This document shows positions 9,417 to 28,278 of a DNA stretch of 28,278 nucleotides, one piece after another (within the stretch, counting starts at the first letter, position 1; each line of letters opens with the position of its first letter). Origin of the DNA: Gemmatimonadota bacterium (GTDB taxonomy: Bacteria; Gemmatimonadota; Gemmatimonadetes; Gemmatimonadales; GWC2-71-9). The position numbers were made by a program, and so were the translations under genes. Below the pieces are notes generated by a model that saw nothing but the letters and a program-made list of their open reading frames with translations, ran no database searches and was not told where the DNA came from. Location: positions 1 through 28,278 of the forward strand of contig JBDHDE010000034.1 of assembly GCA_039591655.1 (NCBI GenBank). The letters are read 5' to 3'.

Positions 9417-9593
9417 TCGTAAGTCCTTGAGAGTGCTGACACTACGCGAGTGCTGTAATGCCGCGACTTCCCAATGGTCGTTTCGGCCACTAGCTTGAAA
9501 GTTAGCAAACGCTAACGGAAATCACATACGCGAGGCAAGGCTACAGCATACGACGGAATGCAGTACCCAACCCGAGCTCCTATAGGAGGGGCA

Positions 9594-10781
9594 ATGAAGG
9601 TTCGCTACATCACCCGCCTATCGAAGCTCGACGGCCTCACCGAGGAAGAGCGTCGTCGATTGGAGCCCGTAGCCGAGCGCTACGTATTCCGGCTCAACGA
9701 TTACTACAGCCACCTCATCGACTGGGATGATCCCAACGATCCGCTGCGACGGCTGGTCGTGCCGCTGGAAAGCGAGCTGAACGACTGGGGGGAGCTGGAT
9801 GCGAGCAACGAGGCGAGCTACACGCCGGTGCGCGGGTGCCAGCACAAGTACACCGACACGGCGCTGCTCCTGGTGAATGAGGTCTGTGGCGCGTACTGCC
9901 GCTATTGCTTCCGCAAGCGGCTGTTCATGAACGACAACGACGACGCCACCCTAGACTACAAACCGGGTCTGCGCTATATCGCCGAGCACGAGGAGATCAC
10001 CAACGTGCTGCTTACCGGCGGTGATCCCATGATCATGTCGACGCGCCGGCTTGAGCCCGTCATCAGTGACGTCGCAGCGATCCCGCACGTGCGGATCATC
10101 CGCATCGGCAGCAAGATGGCGGCGTTCAACCCGTACCGGGTACTGGACGACCCTGATCTGTTGCGGTTGATCAGGGAGCACTGCAATACGAAGACGCAAA
10201 TCTACATCATGAACCATTTCGATCACCCCCGCGAGCTCACCCCCGAGGCGCGGGAGGCGGTCAGCCGGCTGCGGCAGGCCGGCGCGCAGACGGTCAACCA
10301 GTGCCCCATCGTGCGAGGTGTGAACGACCGACCGCAGACGTTCGCCGGACTGTTCCGCGAGTTGTCCTTCATGGGCTGCCCGCAGTACTACGTTTTTCAG
10401 GGACGCCCCGTGGCAGGGAACGAGGCGTACGAAGTGCCCATCCTCGAGGGACTCCACATCGTCATGGAAGCGAACCGGCACCTCTCAGGCCTGGCGAAGC
10501 GGGCACGGTTCGCCATGTCGCACCGCACGGGCAAGATCGAGATCCTTGGCGCCGACGACCGGCACCTCTTCATGCGCTACCACCGGGCGCACAAGAAGGA
10601 AGACTACGGGCAGATCATCGTGGCGAAGCGGGACGATCGGGCGTACTGGCTCGACCAGCTAACGGTGATCTCGGGTCCCGAGTCGGCGGTGCAGTCGGCG
10701 GCCCATTATGCGCCGTACGACTGGCAGGACGAGGCCGCGGAGCGGCGACTGGATCGTGAGGTGCGTTGGCGGAGACGGTAG
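9594..10781 (+). CDS. KamA-family radical SAM/PLP aminomutase-like protein, substrate uncertain
   Basis: AGGAGG SD before ATG 9594; NDPLRRLVVP, HKY, CGAYCRYCFR (CxxxCxxC), LLTGGDP, NHFDHPREL, NQCPIVRGVND and a GK motif at the PLP-lysine position. Confidence 0.9.
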   Translation: MKVRYITRLSKLDGLTEEERRRLEPVAERYVFRLNDYYSHLIDWDDPNDPLRRLVVPLESELNDWGELDASNEASYTPVRGCQHKYTDTALLLVNEVCGAYCRYCFRKRLFMNDNDDATLDYKPGLRYIAEHEEITNVLLTGGDPMIMSTRRLEPVISDVAAIPHVRIIRIGSKMAAFNPYRVLDDPDLLRLIREHCNTKTQIYIMNHFDHPRELTPEAREAVSRLRQAGAQTVNQCPIVRGVNDRPQTFAGLFRELSFMGCPQYYVFQGRPVAGNEAYEVPILEGLHIVMEANRHLSGLAKRARFAMSHRTGKIEILGADDRHLFMRYHRAHKKEDYGQIIVAKRDDRAYWLDQLTVISGPESAVQSAAHYAPYDWQDEAAERRLDREVRWRRR

Positions 10782-10886: not shown

Positions 10887-13082
10887 TTAGGAATCGGGGT
10901 CGGCACTCACCTGCACCCGCGCATCGATGGCCACGGCTCCCTGCTCCAGCGAGATGAGCGGGTTGATGTCCATCTCCTCGATGCGCGGATGACGTTGCGC
11001 GAGTTGGGAGATGCGGAGGATCGCGTCGGCGAGCGCTCCTAGATCGCGAGGCGACTGCCCCCGCACGCCTTCGAGGAGCTGATACAACTTCACGTCGTGG
11101 ATCATCTCTTCGGCGTCCACATCATGCAGCGGGCTGAGGCGCAGCACGACGTCTCGCAGGGCCTCGACGTAAATGCCGCCCATGCCAAACATCACCAGCG
11201 GTCCCACGCGGGGCACCCGCGTGAGCCCCACGATCGTCTCGAGCCCGCCACCCGCCATCTGCTGGACGAATATCCCTTCGATACGAGGCGCAGGCTCCGC
11301 GGGCTTGGTGGTGGCCTTGCCCTTCTTCTTCCGCGCCGTCTTGCTGCTCGCCCCCTCGTTCCCGGTCGTGACCCGTTTGACCATATCGCGCACCGCGCGC
11401 TCGACCTCCGTCTTGCTATCCAATCCAAGGGCCACCCCGCCCACATCGGTCTTATGGGTGATGTCCGGTGAGACGACCTTGAGGGCTACGGGGAAGTCGA
11501 GATCGACGGCGGCCTCGGCGGCGGAGGTGGCCAGCGCTCCCGGACCGTCCTTCGACACGAAACGCCACGGCAGTACCGGAATCCCGTACGCCTCCAGGAC
11601 GCGCATCGCATCGGGTTCGCTCAGCTTGGCGTGACCCTGTTCGAGGGTCTGGTCCACGATGCGTTCCACGGCGGCGTCGTCGGTCTTGAACTTCATTACC
11701 TGGCCCGCCCGGCGGTTCTGGATGCGGCGGTAGCGCCACATGGCCCCCAGGGCGCGCGCCGCCGACTCGGGAAAGATGTACGCCGGGATGCTGGCGTCGT
11801 GCAGCTCGGCCAGTCCGGCCGGCAGGCCCTCGCGTCCCATCAGCACGGCGAGCAGCGGCTTTTCGGGATGCCGCTCGTTGACGCGCACGATAGCCGCGGC
11901 TACGTCCCGCGTCTGGATACCTAGCGGAGGGACAAAGGCCGCGATCGCTGCGTCCACGTTGGGGTCGTCGAATACGCATTGCAGCGCGAACTCGTAGTTC
12001 TCGGCGCTCGCGCTCGCGATCAGATCCACCGGGTTCTTGACGCTCGCCTCCTCCGGCAGACGCGTGCGCAGGAGATCCTCCGTCTCGGGCGCGAGGTGCA
12101 CCACACTGAGCCCGTTGGCCTCGCAGGCGTCGGCCGCCATGATGCCCGGGCCACCCGCGTTGGTCACGATGGCCACCCGATTGCCGGAGGGCAGCGGCTG
12201 GTTGGCGAACGACATCGCCAGGTCGAACAGATCCTCGACGGTCTCGGCGCGCAGGGCGCCAGCCTGCGCGATGAGCGCGTTGGTGGCCAGTTCCGTGCCC
12301 CCCAGGGCGCCGGTGTGCGAGGCAGCCGCGCGAGCCCCGGCGCCGGTGCGACCCGATTTCACCACGCAGATTGGCTTGTGCCTGGTCATCTCGCGGCCGA
12401 TCTCGACGAACTTCCGGGGGTTGCCGAAGCTCTCGAGGTACATCAGCACGACCTGCGTGTTGGGGTCGTCGCGCCAGTACTCGAGGACGTCGTTACCGCT
12501 CACGTCGGCCTTGTTCCCGCTGGAGACGAACATTGAGATGCCGATGTTGAGACTCTCGGCGTAGTCGAGGATGCTGGCGCCCATCGCACCTGACTGGCTC
12601 ACGAACCCCACGGGGCCCACGGGCGGCCGCGCAGGCGCGAAGGTGGCGTTCATCGCGAACGCGGGGTCGTTGTTGATCACCCCGAGGCAGTTGGGGCCCA
12701 CCATGGGCACGCCCGCTTGCTTCACGATCTCGAGCAGCTCCCGTTCGCGCTCGACGCCCTCGCCGCCGACCTCCCTAAAGCCCGCTGAGATCACGACGAG
12801 CCCCTTCACGCCTCTGTCGACGCACTGCTGGGTGACCTCCGCGACGTACGCGCCCGGCACGACGATTACCGCCAGGTCCACCGACTCTGGCACCTCGGCG
12901 ATCGAGGGATAGGCCGGCATCGAGTGGATGGCGGAGGCCTTCGGATTGACTGGGTACACCGGGCCGGTGAAGCCGACACGGAGCAGGTTGTCCAGGATCT
13001 GCCAGCCGATCGTGTGCTTCTGGCGTGAAGCGCCGATGACGGCGATGGAGCGGGGTCGGAGGATGGGGTCGAGGCTCGGCAT
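10887..13082 (-). CDS. ADP-forming acetate/acyl-CoA ligase family protein (fused alpha-beta subunits)
   Basis: CoA-binding PRSIAVIGAS, GPNCLG, SQSGA, GNKADV, phospho-His motif ASHTG, TNAGGPG, NPVDL and ATP-grasp HKTDVGGV...EMDINPL. There is no GNAT domain. Confidence 0.93.
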   Translation of the reverse strand: MPSLDPILRPRSIAVIGASRQKHTIGWQILDNLLRVGFTGPVYPVNPKASAIHSMPAYPSIAEVPESVDLAVIVVPGAYVAEVTQQCVDRGVKGLVVISAGFREVGGEGVERERELLEIVKQAGVPMVGPNCLGVINNDPAFAMNATFAPARPPVGPVGFVSQSGAMGASILDYAESLNIGISMFVSSGNKADVSGNDVLEYWRDDPNTQVVLMYLESFGNPRKFVEIGREMTRHKPICVVKSGRTGAGARAAASHTGALGGTELATNALIAQAGALRAETVEDLFDLAMSFANQPLPSGNRVAIVTNAGGPGIMAADACEANGLSVVHLAPETEDLLRTRLPEEASVKNPVDLIASASAENYEFALQCVFDDPNVDAAIAAFVPPLGIQTRDVAAAIVRVNERHPEKPLLAVLMGREGLPAGLAELHDASIPAYIFPESAARALGAMWRYRRIQNRRAGQVMKFKTDDAAVERIVDQTLEQGHAKLSEPDAMRVLEAYGIPVLPWRFVSKDGPGALATSAAEAAVDLDFPVALKVVSPDITHKTDVGGVALGLDSKTEVERAVRDMVKRVTTGNEGASSKTARKKKGKATTKPAEPAPRIEGIFVQQMAGGGLETIVGLTRVPRVGPLVMFGMGGIYVEALRDVVLRLSPLHDVDAEEMIHDVKLYQLLEGVRGQSPRDLGALADAILRISQLAQRHPRIEEMDINPLISLEQGAVAIDARVQVSADPDS

Positions 13083-13208
13083 GGGACTAAGATAATCGGT
13101 CGCCTCGCTTCAACTGACGTTCGCTCCGGCAGCCCCCTCCCGCTCGCTCCCACCCGTTTGTCGCGGAAAGCCTGGACATCCGTCCAGCGATTCGGGAATA
13201 TTGGGGCA

Positions 13209-13727
13209 ATGCTCCCCCTCCTCAAACTCCTACAGTCCATGGTCCGGGCGCTCCACTCCGAGGGGACGCCCGAGCAGGTGGCGGCGGGAATCGCGCTGGG
13301 CGCGGCCCTGGGCCTCACCCCCCTGATGAGCCTCCACAACCTGCTCGTCGTGGCGGCCATCGCATTGCTCAGGGTGTCGGTGCCAGGGGCGATCCTCGGC
13401 TGGCTGGCGGCGATCCCCGCAGGCTTCCTGCTCGACCCGCTGTTCGATACGGTGGGGGGCGCCCTCCTGCTTGACGCGCGCCCCTTGGAGCCCGCCTGGA
13501 CCGGGGCGTACAACACTCCGGTGGTGTCCCTGGCCCACTTCAACAACTCCGTCGTGTTGGGGAGCCTGGTGGGCTGGATGGTGCTGGCTGCCCCCATTTA
13601 CCTCGCCGCGCGCTGGGGAGTGTCGCGCTATCGGGCGACAGTGCACCCCCGGGTGGTGCAATGGAGGGTGGTCAAGACGGTGCGGGCCTCGAAGCTGTAC
13701 AACCTCTACCGGTTGTTCCGGCCCTGA
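13209..13727 (+). CDS. TIGR03546 family (DUF2062-like) membrane protein
   Basis: LHSEGTPEQVAAGIALG, HNLL, DPLFDTVG and YNTP...FNNSVVLGSL motifs; hydrophobic; paired with the downstream gene. Confidence 0.85.
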   Translation: MLPLLKLLQSMVRALHSEGTPEQVAAGIALGAALGLTPLMSLHNLLVVAAIALLRVSVPGAILGWLAAIPAGFLLDPLFDTVGGALLLDARPLEPAWTGAYNTPVVSLAHFNNSVVLGSLVGWMVLAAPIYLAARWGVSRYRATVHPRVVQWRVVKTVRASKLYNLYRLFRP

Positions 13728-15583
13728 TGGCGCGCCGTAGGGTCTTCCGCTGGCGGGCCATCGTGCCACTGCTGGTCTTCCTCACGCTGCTGGTGCTTGT
13801 CTGGTTGCTGCTGCTCGATCGCCTGGCGGAGCGGGGCATCGAGGCGGCGGCGACCCACCTGGTAGGGGCGCGGGTGGACCTGGCGGAGGCCGATGTGAGG
13901 CTGCGGCAGGGAGCCGTGATACTCCGCGGCCTCGAGGTGACGAACCCCGACGAGCCAATGACCAACCTGTTCGAGGCCGAGGAGATCGTCGCAGACCTGC
14001 GGGTGCTGCCGCTCCTCGAGCAGAAGTTGGCCCTCGACACGGTCGCCGTGAGGGGACTCGAGTTCGGCACCGAGCGCGAGACCTCCGGGGCAGTGGTGGA
14101 GCGGAGCCCCGAGAGCGCCAGGGTGGCGAGGCAGGTCTCGGCCTGGGCCGACGCTTTGCGCTTCCCGTCGTTCAGCCTCGAGGGGCTGGGGCAGGCGGTC
14201 GATGTTGGGGCGCTGAGTCCGGAGAGCCTCCAGGCGGTCGCCCGCGCCGAGGCGCTCGTGGAGCAGGTGGATGCGGTGCGCTCGGGTTGGGACCGGACCC
14301 TGCGGTCTCTCGATCCGCAACCGACGATCGACTCCGCTCGCGCGCTGGTGACGCAACTGCGGCAGGCCGACCTGGGCCGACTGGGACCTGTGGGCGTCGC
14401 CCGTCTGGTGAGCTCCACCCGCACGACGATCAACTCGGTGGGCGAGCTACAGCAGCGTGTGGAATCCCTCGACGACATGGCCCGCTCCGATGTGGCGGAG
14501 CTGCAGGGCGCCCTGCGAGGCCTCTCGGCGGCGCGGGAAGCCGATTACGCATACGCACGGAGCCTGCTCCAGCTTCCCTCCCTGGAGGCGCCGGACATCT
14601 CCCCGGCGCTGTTCGGCGAAGCGGCCGTGGGGTGGATCAAGCCCGTGCTCTACTGGCTCGGAATGGCGGAGCAGTTCCTACCACCCGGCCTCCAGCCCAG
14701 GAGGTTCGCCCCGTCCGGACGCACCCGCCGGGCCGGAACCACCGTGACGTTCCCCAAGGAGGGCGAGCGCCCTGGTTTCCTGTTGGAGCACGGGGAGGCC
14801 TCTCTCGAGCTGGGCGGCGAGGGAATCGAAGCCGGACGCTACCTGGCTGTGGTCAGTGGCCTCACGTCGGCGCCTTCCCTCTACGGCAAGCCCCTCCGGT
14901 TCTTGATCGAGCGCACCGGTGCGGCGGTGGGACCCGGCGACATCGGGGTCGACGTGTTGCTGGATCACGTCACGACGCCGGTACGGGACTCGGTCCAGGC
15001 GCGCCTGGGCGGCATCGAGCTGTCGGCCCTCGAGCTGCCATCGCTGGGAGCCAGGCTGCTCCCGGGCCAGGGTACGATGAGCCTCTCCCTCGAGCGTGTG
15101 GGAGACGCCCTTGCCGGGCGGTGGGTGTGGCGCTCGGCGCGTGTCACATGGGAGAGGATGGGAAGTGGGAGCGGGGAAGGGGAAAGGGAGGCGGCGCAGG
15201 TCGGGAGCGGTGCATGGGCCGAGGACTTTCTCTGGCGTACGGTCTCCGCCATCCGGGACGTCGAGGTGGCCGTGGAGCTCTCCGGCACGGTGGACGGCCC
15301 CTCGCTGGCGGTGCGCTCCAACGTGGGCGATGCGGTGGCGCAGAGCCTGCGCCGCGAGCTGGGGCGCGAGATCGCGCGGGCCGAGGAGCGAGTGCGGGCA
15401 CAGGTGGATGCCCTGGTGGGGGACGGGGTGGCGCGGGCCCGCGCCGGCGTCCGAGAGCTGCAAGGCACGTTGCTGGAGGACATCGGCGGCCCGTTGGGCG
15501 CCCTGGAAGGCGTGCGGCAAGAGCTCGAGCGCGAGGTGGAGCGGCTCGGCCGCCGACTCCCCGGCGGCATCCGGATTCCTTAG
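13727..15583 (+). CDS. TIGR03545 family protein (N-terminal anchor, AsmA-like start)
   Basis: The ATG overlaps the upstream TGA (TGATG). N-terminal TM helix, then VGARVDL...LRGLEVTNPDEPMTNLF and FGTERETSGA, coiled-coil segments and a C-terminal L.VRSNVG motif. Confidence 0.8.
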   Translation: MARRRVFRWRAIVPLLVFLTLLVLVWLLLLDRLAERGIEAAATHLVGARVDLAEADVRLRQGAVILRGLEVTNPDEPMTNLFEAEEIVADLRVLPLLEQKLALDTVAVRGLEFGTERETSGAVVERSPESARVARQVSAWADALRFPSFSLEGLGQAVDVGALSPESLQAVARAEALVEQVDAVRSGWDRTLRSLDPQPTIDSARALVTQLRQADLGRLGPVGVARLVSSTRTTINSVGELQQRVESLDDMARSDVAELQGALRGLSAAREADYAYARSLLQLPSLEAPDISPALFGEAAVGWIKPVLYWLGMAEQFLPPGLQPRRFAPSGRTRRAGTTVTFPKEGERPGFLLEHGEASLELGGEGIEAGRYLAVVSGLTSAPSLYGKPLRFLIERTGAAVGPGDIGVDVLLDHVTTPVRDSVQARLGGIELSALELPSLGARLLPGQGTMSLSLERVGDALAGRWVWRSARVTWERMGSGSGEGEREAAQVGSGAWAEDFLWRTVSAIRDVEVAVELSGTVDGPSLAVRSNVGDAVAQSLRRELGREIARAEERVRAQVDALVGDGVARARAGVRELQGTLLEDIGGPLGALEGVRQELEREVERLGRRLPGGIRIP

Positions 15584-15589
15584 CTTGGG

Positions 15590-18500
15590 ATGGATGAGGA
15601 CCGACCCGACCAGATGACCACCATCCCCGACCTGCAGGATCTCTCCGGGCTTTCCCCGGAGGAGGTGACGGCCCGCGTCGCCGGCGCTCTCGAGGAGGCG
15701 GCGCGCGCGCCCACCTCGGAGGAGTCGCTCCGGCTCGACCGCGCGACGGTGCAGGCACTTCGCGCCTCGCGGCACGTGAGGAGGGTGGTGGAGCACCTCG
15801 AGCCGCGCCACTTGGCGGACCTGCTGGAGCGCTGCGTGGCGCGACTCGAGGCGGGGGGTGAGTCGCGGGATAGCGACCTGCGGGTGCTGACATGGGACAC
15901 CCTGGACCTGGTGCGCCGTCGCGAGGTGCTGCGCCGCATCGAGCGGGCAGCGGTTCCCGAATGGGCGGACCGCCTCCTGCGGGCGGTGGATTCCTCGGAC
16001 CTGACGGTGGGACCTCTGTTTCGGCAGCGCGCAGCGACCTACGGGGCCAAGATCCTGTTCGAGATCCCCGAGGCCGGGGGAAGCCGCCGAATCACATGGG
16101 AGCAGGCGGCACGGCAGGTGGATACGCTGGCCAGGGGCCTGCTGGCCCTCGACGGTCCGGAGCGCACGGCCCCCGTCGCCATCCTGTCCGAGAACCGCAT
16201 CGAGATGGCGCTCCTGGATCTGGCGTGTCTCACGTCGGGGATTCAGAACGCGATGGTGCCGGCCAACTCCACGGAGGCGGACGTGGGCTACATCCTGCGT
16301 CATGCCGCGGTGGGAACGGTCGTCGTGTCGGATCGGAGGCAGCTCCACAAGGTGCAGAAGAACCACGGGGAGTTGCCCGACCTCAGACGCATCGTGGTGA
16401 TGGAGGCGCTGGAGGCGCCCGGGCCCGATGTGATGACACTGGAGGACGTCGCTGCCGGGGCCGCGCAGGTATCTAGCGAGACGGTGCGGCAGCGGTCGGA
16501 GGCGGTGCGGGTGGGCGACCTGGCGACGCTCATGTACACCTCCGGCACCACCGGGATGCCCAAGGGCATCGCCTTCTCACAGCGCAACCTCGTGTTCAAG
16601 CGGTTCGCCCGGGCCCTCGCCCTGCCGGAGCTTGGCGAGGGGGATGTCTTCCTCTCGTACCTCCCGCTGTTCCACACCTTCGGCCGGTACTTGGAGATGC
16701 TGGGATGCGTCTTCTGGGGCGCGAAGTACTGCTTCTTGCTGAACCCGTCGGTCGAGGCGCTGGTGGAAGGCATGCGGCGCTACCGGCCCTCGGTCTTCAT
16801 CAGCGTGCCGCGCAAATGGATGCAGCTGTACGAGGCCGTCGGGCAGCGGGCCGACCCTCTACAGGCGAGCGATGAGGAGCTGCTGGCGGTCACCCGGGAC
16901 CTGACGGGCGGACGGCTACGCTGGGGCCTGTCGGCTGCCGGGTACCTGGATCCCGAGATCTTTCGGTTCTTCTACCGACAGGGGGTACAGCTCCTCAGCG
17001 GCTTCGGCATGAGTGAGGCCACTGGCGGGGTCACAATGACGCCGCCGCACGGGTACAAGGACAACTCCCTCGGCGTGGCCCTGCCGGGCATCGACATCGA
17101 GCTCGCCGACGACGGGGAGCTGCTGCTCCGTGGACCGTACGTGATGCTGGGATACCACGATCCGCCCGATGGGGAGCCGTCCTTCGACGAGGACGGCTGG
17201 CTGCATAGCGGCGACCTGATGCGAATGGACGAGGACGGACACATCCAGTTGGTGGATCGCAAAAAGGAGATCTACAAGAACATCAAGGGGCAGACGATCG
17301 CCCCTCAGCGGATCGAGAACCTGTTCCGAGAGTTCGAGTCGGTGGGGCGGGCGTTCCTGGTGGGCGACCACCGGGAGTACAACACGCTCCTCGTGTATCC
17401 CAACCCGGACTACAAAGACCAGGACTTCGCAACCATGTCGCCCCAGGAGGTTTGGGACCATTTTCGGTCCCTCGTCACGTCGGTCAACAAGTTCGTGGCG
17501 CCGTTCGAGCGCATCGTGGACTTCGCCGTCATCGATCGCGACCTGGATGACGACCGCGGTGAGCTCACCCCCAAGGGCACGCCGCGCCGCAAGGTGGTCG
17601 TCGAGAACTTTGCCGACGTCATCTCCTCGCTGTACCGCCGGACCCACGCGACCGTGGGTGGCGTGGAGCTGACGCTCCCCAACTGGCTGTTCCAGATCCT
17701 GGGACTCACCGCCCAGGACGCCGCCATCGACCGGGACCGGATCACGCTGCCCATCGGGCCGACTCTCACGGTGCGGCGTCTGGAAGGGTCGCGGGTGCGC
17801 GTCGGCTCGTGCACGTACACCATTCCCGGGGAGACGCTCGACCTGGGCGCCATCCTGGCCACGCCGCGTCTCTGGCTCGGAAACGACGAGCTCGTCGACT
17901 TCGCCCCCCTCGACATGGGTGCGCGCCAGCGACCGGGGCGGTCGCAGGCCGGGATCGAGTGGGCCGGACGCGCGGAGCCGTATGCGCCCACCGCCGACGA
18001 CGGAGAGCACCTCAACGAGGCGCTGCGGCACAGCGAGTGGGATCTGCTCGATCTCCACCGGACCGCCAGGTTGCTCGCCTCCACGGAGGAGGATGCGGCG
18101 CTGAGCGCCGTGCGGCTCCTGGAGCGCGTCATTGGCTCAGAGGACGGTCCCCTCATCGACCCCGCGCGCCACCTCCTGGCCCGGGGTGCCCGGGTCGAGT
18201 CGGCGGAGGTGCGGCGCCGTGCTTTCCTCACGCTGGTTCCGAGCGAGCGGGCCTCGCGCTTCGCCGCCACACTGAAGCGGTTCTTCGCCAGCGATCCGCT
18301 GCTCCTGGACACCGAGACGTCGGAGCTGCTGTGCGAGCGCAGTCTACCCGACGCGAAGCTCGAGGCGTTCATCGGGCTGGCGGAGAGCGCCTGCTCGAAC
18401 GGCGCCGGTGGCAATCAGGCCGACCAGCTCGCTCTCTCACTGTTGAGCTTCCTGGCCGAGTATGGAGCGGCCCATCCCATACGCTACCGGCGGATCCGAG

Positions 18501-20377
18501 CCTTCCTGGTGCGCATGAGTCTGTTTGCGCTGGGCCAGGCGACGCGGGTCCATGCGGCGGGGGCGCGCGTCACCCTGGAGAACGGCTTCCGCCAGTGGCT
18601 CGGGCCCACGTCCAAGATCGCCGTCGACACCGAGACGGGGCAGGAGTATCGCTGGGAGGACGTGGTGGTGTTCGAGGAGTCCATGCCCGACGACCACCAG
18701 CGCCGCTTGCTCTCGGCCATCAAGAGCACGCCGTTCCTCCGAGAAGCCGTGTTCCTCTTCTACCGCGGGACGGTGATCCGGCTGAACGACATCCCGCCCG
18801 GGGGGGTGTGGATCCGGCTGCTCGGTGCGCGGCACGGCAAGTCGGTGTACCGCATCACGATCCAGACGCGCACACAGGACACCTACGACGTAGCGGCGAA
18901 CCTCATTGAAGAGCTCCCCGCCGAGCAGGTGCAGGAGGAGATCGACTGGCTCATCCTGTGCGGCGAAGCCGCCAGCCGCGCACCCGTGGTGGAGGACTTC
19001 GGGGGGCACATCCCGGAGCAACACCTGTGGAGCGAGGAATTCGTTACCGGCGATACGCTGGATCGCGAGCTGCGGCGGCTCCAGCGCCGGTCGCCGGAGC
19101 AAGAGGGCCTGCGGCAGATCTGGCCGTTCCTGGCCTGGAGCGCTCTCTCGGCCTACGTGGACTTCTGGGATCGGACGGGACGCCGCTGTGAGATCGCCGC
19201 GCTGGACCCTGCCGACATCGTGGTCCCGACACACGATTACCACACTGGCTCCCGTATCGTGTCGCTCTCGTCGCGGCGGTCCCATGGCGGGCTGTTGGCC
19301 ATGGTGCGCGCGTTCAGGGAGGGGTTCGTCGACGCAGTTGAGGAAGCGCATCCGGACGTGAAGGGGCTCGTGGGGTGGGATGTAGTCTTCTCCGCGGTGC
19401 TGGAGGTCGTTGGTGAGCAAGCGGGGCTGGCGGCGTATGAGCAGGCCCTCGCTGCCGAGACGTCCATCCCGCAGGACCTGCGGAACGCCCTCGGGGAGTA
19501 CCTGTTCACCGTCCGGCGCAGAGGGTTCCTCCCGCGGCGGCTCTACTTTGCGGGCAAGCGCTATCGCCGGTGGGCCAAGCTGAATGCCGATGCCACACCG
19601 CAGGCCCGGGCGGCGACGCTGCAGGAGTTGTACGAGACCTACGGCCTCGACCGTCTCTCGAAGGTCCACCCGGAGGTGCGGCTCCGCTTCTTCCGGGAGA
19701 CGGTGTTCCGCAGCAGCTCCAACGAGCTGCAGCACGGCCTAGACGAGTTGATCGCCCGCGTTCGGAGCGGTGAGCTGCGCAACGGTGATCTTGCCACGGC
19801 GATCGCCGACTTGCGGCAGCGGCTCGACGTGGGCGAGGACGACGACTACTTCCTGGCCCGTATCCCATTCGCCCACCTGCGGCCCGAGGATGCAGTGGGG
19901 TTCGTGTCAGCTGACTCGGGGGCCGGCTCCCAGAGCGAGATCGTGGTGGCCCTCGAGGACAGCGACGCCAATCTGTTCCGGGTGCGGCACGCCCTGGTGC
20001 CCAAGGAGGTCGAGCGGTTGCACCGGCTCTTCCTCTCCGCCCGGCTCGAGGTTCGGTTCGGGCCCGAGCACCGCTACCTGGTTGGGATCAATGAGCGTGA
20101 CCAGATCATCGGGGGCATCTACTACGAGATCGCGGAGGGCGGTCGGCGGGCGCACCTGGAGAAGATTGTGGTCGCCGCGGGGTATCGTCGCAAGGGTGTG
20201 GCGGAGGGGCTCATGAACGACTTTTTCAACCGCCTGCGGGCCGCCGGCGTGAAGCGCGTGACCACCGGGTTCTTCCGCCCCGAGTACTTCTACGCCCACG
20301 GCTTCAGGATCGAGAAGCGCTACGCCGGGCTGGTGAAGTCCCTCGAGGAGGAAGCGGAGGAGGCCGAGCCGGCCTGA
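15590..20377 (+). CDS. 1595-aa multidomain protein: long-chain acyl-CoA ligase (AMP-binding), helical region, kinase-like domain and GNAT acyltransferase
   Basis: Adenylation motifs YTSGTTGMPKG, YLPLFHTFGR, SVPRKW, GFGMSEATG, GWLHSGD and DRKKEI; C-terminal GNAT motif HLEKIVVAAGYRRKGVAEGLM...YFYAHGF. It starts 6 nt after the upstream stop. Confidence 0.9.
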   Translation: MDEDRPDQMTTIPDLQDLSGLSPEEVTARVAGALEEAARAPTSEESLRLDRATVQALRASRHVRRVVEHLEPRHLADLLERCVARLEAGGESRDSDLRVLTWDTLDLVRRREVLRRIERAAVPEWADRLLRAVDSSDLTVGPLFRQRAATYGAKILFEIPEAGGSRRITWEQAARQVDTLARGLLALDGPERTAPVAILSENRIEMALLDLACLTSGIQNAMVPANSTEADVGYILRHAAVGTVVVSDRRQLHKVQKNHGELPDLRRIVVMEALEAPGPDVMTLEDVAAGAAQVSSETVRQRSEAVRVGDLATLMYTSGTTGMPKGIAFSQRNLVFKRFARALALPELGEGDVFLSYLPLFHTFGRYLEMLGCVFWGAKYCFLLNPSVEALVEGMRRYRPSVFISVPRKWMQLYEAVGQRADPLQASDEELLAVTRDLTGGRLRWGLSAAGYLDPEIFRFFYRQGVQLLSGFGMSEATGGVTMTPPHGYKDNSLGVALPGIDIELADDGELLLRGPYVMLGYHDPPDGEPSFDEDGWLHSGDLMRMDEDGHIQLVDRKKEIYKNIKGQTIAPQRIENLFREFESVGRAFLVGDHREYNTLLVYPNPDYKDQDFATMSPQEVWDHFRSLVTSVNKFVAPFERIVDFAVIDRDLDDDRGELTPKGTPRRKVVVENFADVISSLYRRTHATVGGVELTLPNWLFQILGLTAQDAAIDRDRITLPIGPTLTVRRLEGSRVRVGSCTYTIPGETLDLGAILATPRLWLGNDELVDFAPLDMGARQRPGRSQAGIEWAGRAEPYAPTADDGEHLNEALRHSEWDLLDLHRTARLLASTEEDAALSAVRLLERVIGSEDGPLIDPARHLLARGARVESAEVRRRAFLTLVPSERASRFAATLKRFFASDPLLLDTETSELLCERSLPDAKLEAFIGLAESACSNGAGGNQADQLALSLLSFLAEYGAAHPIRYRRIRAFLVRMSLFALGQATRVHAAGARVTLENGFRQWLGPTSKIAVDTETGQEYRWEDVVVFEESMPDDHQRRLLSAIKSTPFLREAVFLFYRGTVIRLNDIPPGGVWIRLLGARHGKSVYRITIQTRTQDTYDVAANLIEELPAEQVQEEIDWLILCGEAASRAPVVEDFGGHIPEQHLWSEEFVTGDTLDRELRRLQRRSPEQEGLRQIWPFLAWSALSAYVDFWDRTGRRCEIAALDPADIVVPTHDYHTGSRIVSLSSRRSHGGLLAMVRAFREGFVDAVEEAHPDVKGLVGWDVVFSAVLEVVGEQAGLAAYEQALAAETSIPQDLRNALGEYLFTVRRRGFLPRRLYFAGKRYRRWAKLNADATPQARAATLQELYETYGLDRLSKVHPEVRLRFFRETVFRSSSNELQHGLDELIARVRSGELRNGDLATAIADLRQRLDVGEDDDYFLARIPFAHLRPEDAVGFVSADSGAGSQSEIVVALEDSDANLFRVRHALVPKEVERLHRLFLSARLEVRFGPEHRYLVGINERDQIIGGIYYEIAEGGRRAHLEKIVVAAGYRRKGVAEGLMNDFFNRLRAAGVKRVTTGFFRPEYFYAHGFRIEKRYAGLVKSLEEEAEEAEPA

Positions 20378-20479: not shown

Positions 20480-21814
20480 CTACTTCTTGGTGGTACCCGC
20501 CAGCTCTGCCGCCGAGACGCCCGCCACTTCCTCCAGCATCGTCGTCGTGACGGACTTGGGCCGCTCGATCGGATAGCCGAGGGCGCGGTCCCAGGTAATG
20601 TTGGCCAGCACGCCGATGGCGCGCCCGATGCCGAACAGCACAGTGTAGAAGTCCCACTCGGTGAGGCCGTAGTACCACTGGATGACGCCGGACTGGGCGT
20701 CCACATTGGGCCACGGGTTCTTGGCCTTCCCCTGCTCCTGGAGGATGTCCGGAGTCACCTTGTAGATCGTGCTGATCAGCTTGAACAGCGGGTAGTCCGG
20801 CAGGTGCTTGAGGCAGAACTCCCGCTGCGACGTGTAGCGCGGGTCGGTCTTCCGCAGCACGGCGTGGCCGTAGCCGGGAATGACCTGGCCGCTGTTCAGG
20901 GTGTCCCACAGCGCCTGCTTCACGTCGTCCTCGGTGTAGTCCTCCTTGCCGAGCTTCTCCATGAAGTTCTGCGTCCAGCGCAACACCTCCTGGTTGGCCA
21001 GACCGTGCAGCGGACCGGCCAGACCGTTGATGCCCGCAGACAGCGAGTAGTAGCAGTCCGACAGTGCGGACGCCACGAGGTGGGTGGTGTGTGCCGAGAC
21101 GTTGCCCGACTCGTGGTCCGAGTGGAGGATGAAGTACATCCGTGCCACGTCGTCGTACGGTGGGTCGATGCCCATCTGGTGCGCGAAGTTACCGCCGAAG
21201 TCGAGCTTCTTGTCCGCGGCGATCTGTTTGCCGCCCTTGTACTTCATGCGATAGATGTACGCGCCGATGGAGGGGAGCCTCGCGAGGAGATTGCTGCAGT
21301 CCTCGTACACCGGGTCCCAGTACTCCATCTTGTTCATGCCCGCGTTGTACCGCTTGACGAACTCGGACTCCCGCTGCATCGCCAGGATGGCCATCGAGAA
21401 CAGCGCCATCGGGTGGCTGTCCTTCGGCATCTTCTCCAGCACGTCGAACACGTACTTGGGTACCTCGCGGCGTTTCTGGAAGTCCTTGACCACCTCCAGC
21501 GCCTGCTTCTCCGTGGGCACTTCGGCCGTGAGAAGGAAGTACCAGAAGGCCTCGACGTACGGGTAGTCGGACTTGGGCGCCTTGGGCAGCGCCTCGAAGG
21601 TCTCCGGGATCGTCTTGCCGCGGAACCGGATGCCCTCGAACGGATCGAGGTACGAGATGTCGGTCACCATCATCTTGACGCCGCGGGCGCCGCCGATGGC
21701 CTGGCCGATGGTCACCTCGCCCACCTTGACGTCGCCGTACTCCTTGAGCAGCCGCGTGGTGCGCGGGCGATGCTGCTCGATCTTCTTATGCAGGGTTTCT
21801 TTGAGCGTCGACAT
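20480..21814 (-). CDS. gltA: Citrate (Si)-synthase, eukaryote-like type
   Basis: GGARG, LDPFEGIRFRG, HSDHESGNVSAH, LAGPLHGLANQEVL, PGYGHAVLRKTDPR, NPWPNVDAQSG and IERPKS; GAGGA SD. Confidence 0.96.
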   Translation of the reverse strand: MSTLKETLHKKIEQHRPRTTRLLKEYGDVKVGEVTIGQAIGGARGVKMMVTDISYLDPFEGIRFRGKTIPETFEALPKAPKSDYPYVEAFWYFLLTAEVPTEKQALEVVKDFQKRREVPKYVFDVLEKMPKDSHPMALFSMAILAMQRESEFVKRYNAGMNKMEYWDPVYEDCSNLLARLPSIGAYIYRMKYKGGKQIAADKKLDFGGNFAHQMGIDPPYDDVARMYFILHSDHESGNVSAHTTHLVASALSDCYYSLSAGINGLAGPLHGLANQEVLRWTQNFMEKLGKEDYTEDDVKQALWDTLNSGQVIPGYGHAVLRKTDPRYTSQREFCLKHLPDYPLFKLISTIYKVTPDILQEQGKAKNPWPNVDAQSGVIQWYYGLTEWDFYTVLFGIGRAIGVLANITWDRALGYPIERPKSVTTTMLEEVAGVSAAELAGTTKK

Positions 21815-23173: not shown

Positions 23174-25111
23174 TCACTCGGCGTTGCGGATGGCGTCCAT
23201 CGCGTCGGGGTTCTGGACCGATGAGAGGTCGCCCGGCTCGCGTCCGAGATAGGTGTCCCGCACCAGGCGCCGCAGGATCTTGGCGCCGCTGGTCTTAGGC
23301 AGGTCCGCCACGAAGAGGACCTTATCGGGCCGGTCGACTCTGCCGAGGCGGCCCACCACCGCGTTGACTAGCTCCTCCCGTAGCTTATCGGACGGAGCGT
23401 GGCCCTCCTGTGGCACCACGAAGCAGACGATGGCCTCGCCCTTCACGTCGTGGGGTACTCCCACGGCCGCCGCTTGCGCCACCTTCCCTCCGGCCATCAA
23501 GGCGCTCTCCACCTCCGCCGGACCGATCCGGCGGCCCGCGACCTTGAGCGTATCGTCGGCCCGGCCCTCGAGGAACCAGTAACCGTCCTCGTCGATGCGC
23601 GCCCAGTCACCGTGGTTCCACACGTCCTTCCAGGTGGACCAGTAGCTCTCCAGGTATCGGTCGGCGTCGTTCCACAGGCCTCGAGTCATGGACGGAGCCG
23701 GCTTGGTGGCCACGAGGTACCCGACCTCGTTGCGCACCGACTCCCCCTTCTCGTTCCACACGTCCACGGCCATCCCCAGACCCGGGCCCACGAGACTGCA
23801 CGGCTTGAGCGGTTGAGTCGGGAGAGGTGACAGGAAGCACCCGATGATGTCCGTCCCACCGGAGATGTTGATGATGGGGCAGCGGCTGTCCCCTACGTGC
23901 TCGAAGAACCAGTACCACGAGGCCTCGTCCCACGGTTCCCCGGTGGAGCCGAGAATGCGCAGATGCGAGAGGTCGTGACGGCGCACGAGCTCGGCGCCCG
24001 AGCGCATGGCTACACGGATCGCGGTGGGGGAGATCCCGAAGACAGACACGCGGTGGCGCTCCAGGAATGACCAGAGGCGATCGCGCTCCGGCCAGTCCCA
24101 GGCCCCGTCGTACAGCATGACCGTGGCGCCGTGGAACAGGCCGCCCAGGATCGTCCAGGGGCCCATCATCCAGCCGATATCCGTCAGCCAGAAGAAACGA
24201 TCCTCCGGCTTCAGGTCGAACGCATATCCCGTCTCCTTGGCGATCTGCACCAGGGCGCCGGCGTGGCTGTGCACGGTGCCCTTGGGACGGCCGGAGGTAC
24301 CGGACGTGTAGAGGATGAGGGCGGGGTCCATGGACGCCATCATCTCCGTGTCCGTGCCGTCGGACGATCCCGAGGCGAGGAACTCGGGCCAGGCCACGTC
24401 CCGCTCGTGCCGCCACACGATGTCGTCGTCCGTGTAGCGCGCCACCACCATCTGGGTGACGCTCGGGACCTCCGCCACCGCCGCGTCCGCGTTGCCCTTG
24501 ATGGGCACCGTCTGGCCGTTTCGTATCGAGCCGTCGGCGGTGAAGAGCAGCTTGGCCCCCGCGTCCCGCAGACGCTCCGCCACGGCTGCCGGGGCGTATT
24601 CGCTGACGATCGGAATGAAGATGGCGCCGATCTTGAGGGTGGCCAGGAGCTGCACCACCACCTCGGCGGTCATCGGCATGTACGCCGCGACCCGGTCCCC
24701 ATGCGCGATGCCTCGCCTCCGCAGGGCCGAGGCGCAGCGGTCCACATGCTGGGCCAACTCCCGGAAGGTGAGTTGGGTGAGGTGGCCGTCCTCCCGCTCG
24801 GCGATCAGGCAGACCGCGTCCCCCCGCGGCCCTCCTGCGTGCCGGTCGAGGCAGTTGGCCGCGATGTTGAGCCGGCCTCCGACGTACCACTCTGTCCACG
24901 GGGCCCCCCGGCTCGCGTCGAACACCGCGCCGTACGGGTGGGCGAACCGGATTCCCAGGTCCTCCACCACGGCATCCCAGAACCACTCCGGCTCGGCGGC
25001 GGAGCGCTCGACGAGCGCCTGCACGTCGTCCATACCGTGCCTGCGCATGAAGCGGGTCACGTTTGCCGCAGCGGTGAGCTCGGGCGTTGGACGCCAGGCG
25101 AAATCGGACAT
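23174..25111 (-). CDS. AMP-forming short-chain acyl-CoA synthetase (Acs/acetoacetyl-CoA synthetase-like)
   Basis: GGRLNIAANCLDRH, YTSGTSGRPKG, DIGWMMG, NISGGTD, WNHGD, GRADD, GRRIGPAEVE and PKTSGAKILRR. Confidence 0.92.
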   Translation of the reverse strand: MSDFAWRPTPELTAAANVTRFMRRHGMDDVQALVERSAAEPEWFWDAVVEDLGIRFAHPYGAVFDASRGAPWTEWYVGGRLNIAANCLDRHAGGPRGDAVCLIAEREDGHLTQLTFRELAQHVDRCASALRRRGIAHGDRVAAYMPMTAEVVVQLLATLKIGAIFIPIVSEYAPAAVAERLRDAGAKLLFTADGSIRNGQTVPIKGNADAAVAEVPSVTQMVVARYTDDDIVWRHERDVAWPEFLASGSSDGTDTEMMASMDPALILYTSGTSGRPKGTVHSHAGALVQIAKETGYAFDLKPEDRFFWLTDIGWMMGPWTILGGLFHGATVMLYDGAWDWPERDRLWSFLERHRVSVFGISPTAIRVAMRSGAELVRRHDLSHLRILGSTGEPWDEASWYWFFEHVGDSRCPIINISGGTDIIGCFLSPLPTQPLKPCSLVGPGLGMAVDVWNEKGESVRNEVGYLVATKPAPSMTRGLWNDADRYLESYWSTWKDVWNHGDWARIDEDGYWFLEGRADDTLKVAGRRIGPAEVESALMAGGKVAQAAAVGVPHDVKGEAIVCFVVPQEGHAPSDKLREELVNAVVGRLGRVDRPDKVLFVADLPKTSGAKILRRLVRDTYLGREPGDLSSVQNPDAMDAIRNAE

Positions 25112-26887: not shown

Positions 26888-28278
26888 ACGTCCCCCGTCA
26901 ACTGCGTCCACTGCCACACGCCGCTGCCCGACGGCAGCCGGTTCTGTCCCGCGTGCGGCGCCGACACCTCGGATCCGGGGTCGGGGCCGCGTACCACGCC
27001 GATGTCGTCCGGCGACATGTTCGAGCGGCTCGGCGCGAGCGTGTCGGGACGCTACGACGTGATGGAGCTGGTGGGTCGGGGCGGCATGGGGATCGTCTTC
27101 CTAGCCAACGAGCGCTCGCTGGATCGGCCGGTGGCGATCAAGGTGCTCCCGACGGAGCTGGCACACGACGAGAAGTTCGTGCAGCGGTTCGAGCACGAGG
27201 CCCGCACGGCGGCGAAGCTCGACCACCCCAACATCATCCCGATCTACGCGGTGGAGAGCGACGACGATCTCCACTACTTCGTGATGAAGTTCGTCACAGG
27301 CCGGGCCCTGGACGAGATCATCGAGTCCGGCCCCCTGCCCATCGATAACACCCAGCGGATCTTGTGGGAGGCCGCCTGCGCGTTGGGGCACGCTCACACC
27401 CGGGGCATCGTGCACCGTGACATCAAGCCCGCGAACATCATGATCGACGACGCCGGCCGCACGATGCTCACCGACTTCGGGATCTCCAAGGCGCTCCAGT
27501 CGGCGAGCCAGTTCACGGCCACCGGCCAGGTGATCGGCACTCCCCACTACATGAGTCCCGAGCAGGCCAAGGGGCAGGAGGTGGACGGCCGGAGCGACCA
27601 GTACTCCCTGGCGGTGGTGGGCTACCGTATGCTCGCCGGACGCCTCCCGTTCGAGGACGAGTCGGTCCACACCATCATCTACAAGCACATCTTTGAGGAG
27701 CCGCCGGCGCTCTCGGGTCTGCGCCAGGACGCGCCGCAGCACGTCGTGGAGGCCTTGCACCGAGCGCTGGCCAAGGATCCCAACGATCGCTTCGGTACGA
27801 TGGAGGAGTTCGCCACCGCCGTTCTCCCGACGCATCCGGTGACGAGCTCCATGAGCTCCGCTCCCGTGATCACCTCCGGTGCGGCGATCGATGTGGCGAC
27901 AGAGATCACCCCGATGCCGCCCACAGGACCGCAGCCCGTGCCGCGCAAGCGGCGGGGCATGGGGGTCCTGCTCACCATCGTCGCGCTGGCTGGTGGAGCC
28001 GGCGGCGTGTACTGGGTGATGAGCGGCGGTGGGGCGCCCGGGGCCGAGGTGGGGGAGCCGCAGGCACCGGTGGCCGCCGCGGTGGAGGACACGACCGCCG
28101 CCGTGACGCCGCTGGACACGGCGACTGCGGAGGACACCGCCACGCAGGTCGCGCAGACGCCTGCGCCCGTCGTGCAGGAGCCGGAACCGCAAACCCAGCC
28201 CCCGAGGCAAACCGAGACCCAGCGGCGGCCGGCGCAGCGCCCCGCGGCTCCGCAGGTGGGGTGGGTGACGATCGACGC
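26888..28278 (+). CDS. Hanks-type Ser/Thr protein kinase with N-terminal zinc ribbon and TM helix (runs off the window end)
   Basis: The frame reads CVHCHTPLPDGSRFCPACG, VGRGGMGIVF, VAIKVL, HPNII, HRDIKPANI, TDFG, GTPHYMSPEQ and DQYSL, then TM GVLLTIVALAGGAGGVYWV and a Pro/Thr/Gln linker. It is absent from the ORF track because there is no stop. Apparent start ACG 26888; the first ATG is at 27002. Confidence 0.92.

Follow-up and report, generated by a model that had tools for sequence, protein, structure and literature searches.

The question raised by this locus is what lies between the acyl ligase and the GNAT acyltransferase of a giant protein encoded in a 28,278-nucleotide stretch of Gemmatimonadota DNA (contig JBDHDE010000034.1, assembly GCA_039591655.1; hereafter the window). 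The protein, of 1595 amino acids, is read from one open reading frame (ORF) on the plus strand (15590-20377), which contains the whole span, 18800..19280, in which an earlier interpretation of the letters alone (the sequence-only reading) had noticed a cryptic, degenerate protein-kinase fold and proposed a pseudokinase with a putative role as scaffold or nucleotide sensor. The analysis presented here supports the observation as real and points to a new pseudokinase family inside a new GNAT architecture, the function of which is only proposed. Residues 1030-1315 (18677..19534, +) almost certainly adopt a protein-kinase-like fold, as judged from an AlphaFold2 model and its Foldseek and VIA-align matches. 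Homologues share the layout of the window protein (15590..20377, +), in which acyl ligase, beta-rich domain, helical repeats, pseudokinase, helical linker and GNAT follow one another.

All seven peptides quoted in the sequence-only reading were located in frame and in the order given, within residues 1078-1227 of the plus-strand ORF. They are LGARHGKSVY, taken as the Gly loop (residues 1078-1087, nucleotides 18821-18850), VAAN as strand beta3 (1101-1104), QEEIDWL as helix alphaC (1115-1121), PVVEDF (1132-1137), HLWSEEFVTGDTLD as the hinge (1145-1158), EIAALDPADIVV as the catalytic loop (1201-1212) and RIVSLS as the DFG region (1222-1227, nucleotides 19253-19270). AlphaFold2 was run without templates on residues 686-1595 and on residues 1030-1315, the ligase lying outside both models. 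The model of residues 686-1595 (910 residues) has a predicted local distance difference test score (pLDDT) of 88.9 and a predicted TM-score (pTM) of 0.83, and because of the latter is regarded as one packed unit; its Foldseek matches were kinases and GNATs. In the model of the domain alone (pLDDT 93.3), strands 1073-1081, 1084-1092 and 1098-1106, helix 1111-1125 and strand 1146-1150 are followed by the helices of a C-lobe, and the quoted motifs sit on the expected kinase elements, so that the prediction displays the bilobal fold of the protein-kinase-like superfamily.

Searching the PDB with this model in Foldseek gave at least 500 matches with E≤1e-3 (best 8e-7, TM-scores 0.32-0.45), those listed being all kinases, and the matches in the viral library were mostly kinases. 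With VIA-align, run over 48,161 chains, Bud32 came first (Z 13.6, root-mean-square deviation 4.3, 219 residues aligned), followed by Rio1 (Z 12.9) and next by YihE and Rio2. All 50 listed matches were kinase-fold entries with Z 10.6-13.6, the matches spanning about 180-235 residues. The check by AlphaFold and Foldseek for which the sequence-only reading had asked thus yielded a predicted bilobal kinase fold with kinases at every listed rank. Its location of the domain was correct, its extent too short, and its assignment to the PKc-like type has to be replaced, since the nearest structures are of the Bud32, RIO and small-molecule-kinase type and not PKc-type Ser/Thr kinases.

As had been anticipated, standard annotation misses the domain: no Pfam family covers the region, none of 46 diverse members has a kinase family there either, and a PDB sequence search (phmmer/hmmsearch) with the region gave no kinase match. 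The likeness to the Ser/Thr kinase at the end of the window, from which the sequence-only reading had started, is not borne out by single sequences or shallow profiles: hhalign against that kinase gave a probability of 0.3, a 56-row profile scored 22.7 in hhalign as against 22.9 for the best shuffle, and the family hidden Markov model recovered no kinase among the ORFs of its own genome. That the domain resembles kinases beyond chance emerges from the structural matches and from a deeper profile of 397 rows, which hhalign matched to kinases (84 kinase domains from the same genome plus the window kinase) with E 0.0032 and a score of 28.1 over 94 columns; none of 74 column shuffles (maximum 20.7) scored as high, nor did the reversed control (14.2). 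In this alignment the HRD Asp corresponds to Ala1204 and the loop Asn to Asp1209. A likeness arising by chance or as a modelling artefact, for which the missing Pfam and PDB sequence matches, the identity to kinases of 6-17% and the Foldseek TM-scores of just 0.32-0.45 would speak, is practically negligible in view of the same order of strands and helices in two template-free models, the uniformly kinase-fold VIA-align matches and the position of the deep profile above every shuffle. The window kinase itself (27002-28276) is part of a large expansion, with 84 kinase domains in a 3.3-Mb genome.

Membership in DUF6206 (PF19709), to which a feature similarity of 0.94 in the Atlas pointed, was rejected, there being no Pfam match to it in the own genome or in the 46 members; alignment by hhalign to one DUF6206 member was not significant. 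Seen by eye, a DUF6206 member (L144:1360-2274) has Asp/Asn as in a catalytic loop, along with a Gly loop and a beta3 Lys, so that DUF6206 could in its turn be a kinase-like family lacking annotation.

In a midpoint-rooted FastTree tree of 56 representatives, limited to proteins of at least 1450 amino acids, clade A comprises 32 sequences including the window protein and clade B comprises 24. Residues were counted over 297 homologous domains, non-redundant at 90%, of which 252 belong to clade A and 45 to clade B as assigned by motif; the DFG and beta3 registers derive from spacing and from the predicted strands and their order, and not from residue-level structural alignment. These counts, the conservation check that had been suggested, corroborate the claimed loss of the beta3 (VAIK) Lys, at which position the window copy has Asn1104 (18899..18901, +): clade A has Asn in 193 and Lys in 7 of its domains and clade B never has Lys (0/45), which leaves Lys in 7/297. 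They equally uphold the loss of the DFG motif, the Asp of which is replaced by Ser1225 (19262..19264, +), a serine found in 238/252 clade-A and 44/45 clade-B domains (282/297), with Asp at 1224-1226 in 0/297. The loss of HRD holds for the window copy, the catalytic loop of which (19199..19216, +) carries, in the hhalign register, Ala1204 in place of the HRD Asp and Asp1209 in place of the loop Asn; it does not hold for the family as a whole, where 138 of the 252 clade-A domains have Asp and 55 have Glu at position 1204, with D, E, N, A, R and S all occurring. Position 1209 in clade A is Asn in 141 and Asp in 73.

Further positions may belong to a nucleotide site in clade A. Glu1117 (18938..18940, +), aligned by hhalign with the alphaC Glu of kinases, is Glu in 237/252 clade-A domains and Thr in 38/45 clade-B domains, and the hinge Glu1150 is retained in 225/252 of clade A. 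Lys1084 (18839..18841, +), unmentioned in the sequence-only reading, takes the place of the loop's third Gly in that reading's own alignment and, as judged from the strand start in the model, is the first residue of the predicted strand beta2. Clade A has Lys (205) or Arg (33) here in 238/252 domains, and clade B shows no conservation of the position. Clade B has lost K/R1084, E1117 and E1150, retaining the loop Asn in 45/45 in addition to Ser1225. Lys1084 could be a WNK-like substitute lysine, a putative positional match to WNK1 Lys233.

By the sequence definition, a kinase fold counts as a pseudokinase if one or more of the beta3 Lys, the HRD Asp and the DFG Asp are missing (PMC12599244). 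The window domain is a pseudokinase in this sense, its copy having none of the three and hence not the residues expected of an active kinase, and the kinase-fold domain is very probably non-catalytic. An atypical active enzyme in clade A, performing WNK-like phosphotransfer or SelO/SidJ-type nucleotidyl transfer with the beta2 Lys, loop Asp and loop Asn serving catalysis, would be compatible with the joint occurrence of K/R1084, E1117, D1204 and N1209 in 89/252 clade-A domains, with the activity of WNK and PRPK/Bud32 in the absence of a beta3 Lys (PMC4718504) and with Bud32 as the top fold match; nevertheless, the universal absence of the DFG-position Asp, Ala1204 in the window copy and the free variation of position 1204 make it very unlikely.

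The family was collected with residues 1000-1400 as the query, 8000 candidates being scored at a cut-off of E≤1e-3. It comprised 444 homologues, the best 120 of which all have the same Pfam layout, and among representatives clustered at 50% identity there were 285 matches, 150 of them listed. Shorter matches were colinear fragments of the same architecture except for eight with unmatched ends, and, these eight aside, no stand-alone form of the kinase-fold domain was found among them. Members were named from Gemmatimonadota and Acidobacteriota and, according to 20 representatives looked up, from Marinimicrobia, Ignavibacteria, Bacteroidota and Calditrichota. Their occurrence is patchy, with the protein in 10/301 Gemmatimonadota genomes (close-clade profile) and full-length matches in 25/401 Acidobacteriota genomes. 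Between the window protein and the 55 other representatives the kinase-fold domain has 16-53% identity and the GNAT a similar 20-57%, the ligase being the best-conserved part of the protein over the 56 representatives. At three loci (L011, L023 and L042) the giant gene is split over two or three tblastn pieces, by frameshift, assembly error or decay. No description of the family was found in the literature, of which the supplements, the KINtaro family table and subscription journals lay outside the coverage and could list it; term searches in the main texts of PMC12599244, PMC10870513 and bioRxiv 10.64898/2026.09.18.752743 found no description either. The family thereby adds a kinase fold overlooked by standard annotation in at least six lineages, mostly of uncultured bacteria.

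Pfam assigns residues 144-523 to AMP-binding, 565-684 to its C-terminal domain and 1489-1559 to GNAT, with no family between the last two. The adenylate-forming domain (residues 144-684; 16019..17641, +; PF00501 E 1e-64, PF23562 E 2e-13) is of the long-chain-acyl-CoA-synthetase type, FadD11 being the best NCBIfam model and, like every NCBIfam shown, one whose cut-off is not reached. Motifs A3, A4, A5, A7 and A8 are intact and near-invariant in the 56 representatives. Motif A10 is altered to ELTPKGT (Lys662 and Thr664; 17573..17581, +): in an ungapped alignment to the own-genome paralogue (ELTPTLKVKRR), Thr664 occupies the position of the canonical catalytic Lys and Lys662 lies two residues earlier. 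The pattern ELTxKG[TS] is a family trait, with Lys at 662 in 298/300 and Thr or Ser at 664 in 296/300 readable sequences (28 of 328 were unread), and the canonical register Px4GK (PMC8388817) is absent. In the AMP-forming superfamily the A10 Lys is both catalytic and a site of acetylation (PMC8388817, PMC4053389). Going by these substitutions, the ligase may use a relocated A10 Lys or be weakened.

The ligase is followed by a beta-rich domain (about residues 687-794) and stacked helical repeats (about 802-1004; together 17645..18601, +), delimited by AlphaFold2 secondary structure. The best ESM Atlas similarity of this region, 0.77 to HEAT-type clusters, is a lead only, and a VIA search with the 910-residue model returned only GNATs, with no match to the beta-rich or helical-repeat regions. 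The GNAT (residues 1451-1588; 19940..20353, +; PF00583 E 1.8e-8) carries motif A, R-x-x-G-x-A, with R1533 and G1536 in most members and E/D at 1524 in 52/56. Its best PDB sequence match was Tetrahymena Gcn5 (E 0.0035) and its leading fold matches in VIA were YhbS (Z 16.6) and Gcn5 (Z 15.1).

The convergent neighbour of the giant gene encodes a eukaryote-type citrate (Si)-synthase (20480..21814, -; NF007128 E 2.4e-227). The context sample comprised 143 loci, many of them cut short, and clustering at 60% identity divided them into 30 groups. Citrate synthase was the commonest neighbour (59/143 loci, 11/30 groups), with the next families reaching 5/30 groups. Its gene is found in three layouts: downstream and convergent, as in the window, or codirectional with the giant gene on either its downstream or its upstream side. 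The distance is often no more than about 200 bases. In group L140, one of the 11, the citrate synthase is of a different type. Genome-wide, the NF007128 citrate synthase is present in 10/10 Gemmatimonadota carriers of the giant protein vs 18/291 other genomes, and in 23/25 Acidobacteriota carriers vs 100/376 others (genome G328 being counted as one no-match row), thus in 33/35 carriers of both phyla, a co-occurrence inflated by the relatedness of the genomes, so that Fisher values overstate it. Rechecking the 18 Gemmatimonadota genomes with a broad profile revealed no full-length giant protein. Pairwise identities of linked citrate synthase and giant protein correlated only modestly, with rho 0.31 over 39 loci, whose pairs are not independent, and were not used as evidence.

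From what is shown, namely the predicted kinase fold, the missing catalytic residues, the fixed domain order and the linkage to citrate synthase, we infer an activity, its coupling and its target, in a mechanism whose chance of being right as a whole we place somewhat short of even: the pseudokinase may serve, without catalysis of its own, to couple the domains of a regulated protein acyltransferase, the likely target of which would be the neighbouring citrate synthase. The ligase domain would bind or activate a fatty acid with ATP, sensing or making the acyl donor, and because of the shifted A10 Lys it may be slow, or act as a sensor in the way of Pat's dead synthetase domain. The pseudokinase would pack between the helical arm and the GNAT, in clade A it may bind an adenine nucleotide via Lys1084, Glu1117 and the hinge, and its state would set GNAT activity; lysine acylation of citrate synthase would then tune the entry of acetyl-CoA into the tricarboxylic acid (TCA) cycle. 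Precedents are the bacterial GNATs of types I-III, which are described as being under the control of fused sensory domains, as in Pat, whose GNAT is governed by a synthetase-like or ligand-binding domain fused to it (PMC8556138), and an acetyl-mimic at K393 of human citrate synthase, which raises the Km for acetyl-CoA about 30-fold (PMC12616816). If the mechanism is true, acylation by a dedicated enzyme would control a citrate synthase of the mitochondrial type, and an acyltransferase would be gated by a pseudokinase on its own chain; the genomic link supplies a concrete, assayable candidate substrate.

Several observations weigh against this coupling mechanism. The window copy is devoid of the loop Asp that many homologues retain, and clade B retains the architecture without the supposed nucleotide-binding residues and has citrate synthase adjacent in 0/9 loci. 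A single group accounts for 90/143 loci, kinship among the genomes makes their counts non-independent, most genomes with the eukaryote-type citrate synthase have no giant protein, and the citrate synthases of two Acidobacteriota carriers (G463 and G548) do not match NF007128 at the cut used. In the GNAT, His1522 is found instead of Glu at the base position, that of the catalytic Glu of Gcn5. The GNAT fold matches tie among protein, small-molecule and N-terminal acetyltransferases, which leaves protein-lysine specificity putative. An extended form of the proposal, an undescribed class of lysine acyltransferase that would read fatty acid or acyl-AMP through the relocated-Lys ligase and ATP/ADP through the pseudokinase and write onto citrate synthase, with a WNK-type beta2 Lys that evolved independently and citrate synthase as a dedicated TCA-entry switch, is put forward as an unlikely, if conceivable, case.

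The same clade-B members, with the architecture but neither nucleotide-site residues nor adjacent citrate synthase, would suit a self-contained acylation enzyme, in which the acyl-CoA product of the ligase would serve the GNAT to acylate a small molecule or lipid, the kinase fold is only a rigid spacer and citrate synthase is a metabolic neighbour instead of a target. The near-invariant ligase motifs in the best-conserved part of the protein and the small-molecule acetyltransferases among the top GNAT fold matches point in this direction, which we nonetheless regard as doubtful: no biosynthetic gene set is widely shared, the next neighbours occurring in only 5/30 groups, the canonical A10 Lys is replaced in 296/300 sequences, and a spacer leaves the conservation of K/R1084 and E1117 in clade A unexplained. 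Acylation of the own ligase, for instance at Lys662, as a built-in feedback with the pseudokinase as a hinge, is modelled on the action of AcuA on AcsA or of Pat on Acs. AMP-forming CoA ligases are known to be acetylated by GNATs on their active-site Lys (PMC4053389, PMC8388817), Lys662 is near-invariant and ligase and GNAT are found on one chain in all full-length members examined; with the Px4GK context of A10 missing, the ligase outside both models and the citrate synthase linkage left unexplained, this feedback appears distinctly unlikely.

Other genes of the locus were considered as well. Directly upstream of the giant gene and on the same strand lie genes of the TIGR03546 and TIGR03545 families (13158-15583, by family match); this pair was rejected as a partner, being a local neighbour only, in 14 and 16 of 42 loci, all from Gemmatimonadota. 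The locus is flanked by an NDP-forming acyl-CoA ligase without a GNAT (10887-13082) and by an AMP-forming acetyl-CoA synthetase (23174-25111), the classic type of Pat substrate, which is linked in 1/42 loci of relatives. A KamA-family radical SAM protein (9558-10781) is linked in 9/42 close loci. Elsewhere in the family, genes for a squalene/phytoene synthase and a flavin amine-oxidoreductase adjoin the giant gene in 8 loci of 5 groups (e.g. L143:7599-10573), and downstream of one clade-B member (L043:10888-14043) the ORFs resemble, by eye, a lipid acyltransferase, a nucleotidyltransferase and a phosphotransferase.

Among known systems, the best fold matches are Bud32/PRPK and RIO (PDB 4ww5 and 1zp9), with which the model of the window domain shares a short segment after the DFG equivalent. 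They are active enzymes with 11-12% identity to the window domain, which differs in having Ser at the DFG Asp and in being embedded in a ligase-GNAT chain. EssB/YukC and MviN exemplify a kinase fold with three degraded catalytic motifs and a non-catalytic use (PMC12599244, PMC4718504), but they are membrane or secretion scaffolds, unlike the window protein; a term search of the former source, a 2025 review, returned neither 'GNAT' nor 'acetyltransferase'. In WNK kinases the beta3 Lys is replaced and a Lys on beta2 is used instead (PMC12599244, PMC4718504), a replacement that K/R1084 at the start of beta2 in clade A may parallel; WNK is, however, an active kinase, whereas the window family is always without the DFG Asp. 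The ligase resembles FadD11/FadD15 of the ANL type in its domains (PF00501 and PF23562) and motifs A3, A4, A5, A7 and A8, and differs from them in the A10 Lys, shifted by two residues, and in about 900 extra residues of the protein. Similar in overall plan are the type I/II Pat enzymes (SePat, PatZ and SlPatA) and type III GNATs (MtPat, Rv0998), in which a GNAT is fused to a large synthetase-like or sensory region, and the fold matches of the window GNAT include those of SlPat and MtPat. The window GNAT has the acetyl-CoA motif A of type I/II Pat (PF00583; R1533 and G1536; fold Z 16.6). The window protein nevertheless falls outside type I/II because the domain fused to its GNAT is a ligase of the AMP-forming kind, most motifs of which are intact, in contrast to the inactive NDP-forming synthetase domain of Pat. 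The regulatory architecture is absent from the descriptions of type I-IV GNATs that were consulted, and the window protein, unlike Pat, combines its ligase and GNAT with a helical arm and a pseudokinase.

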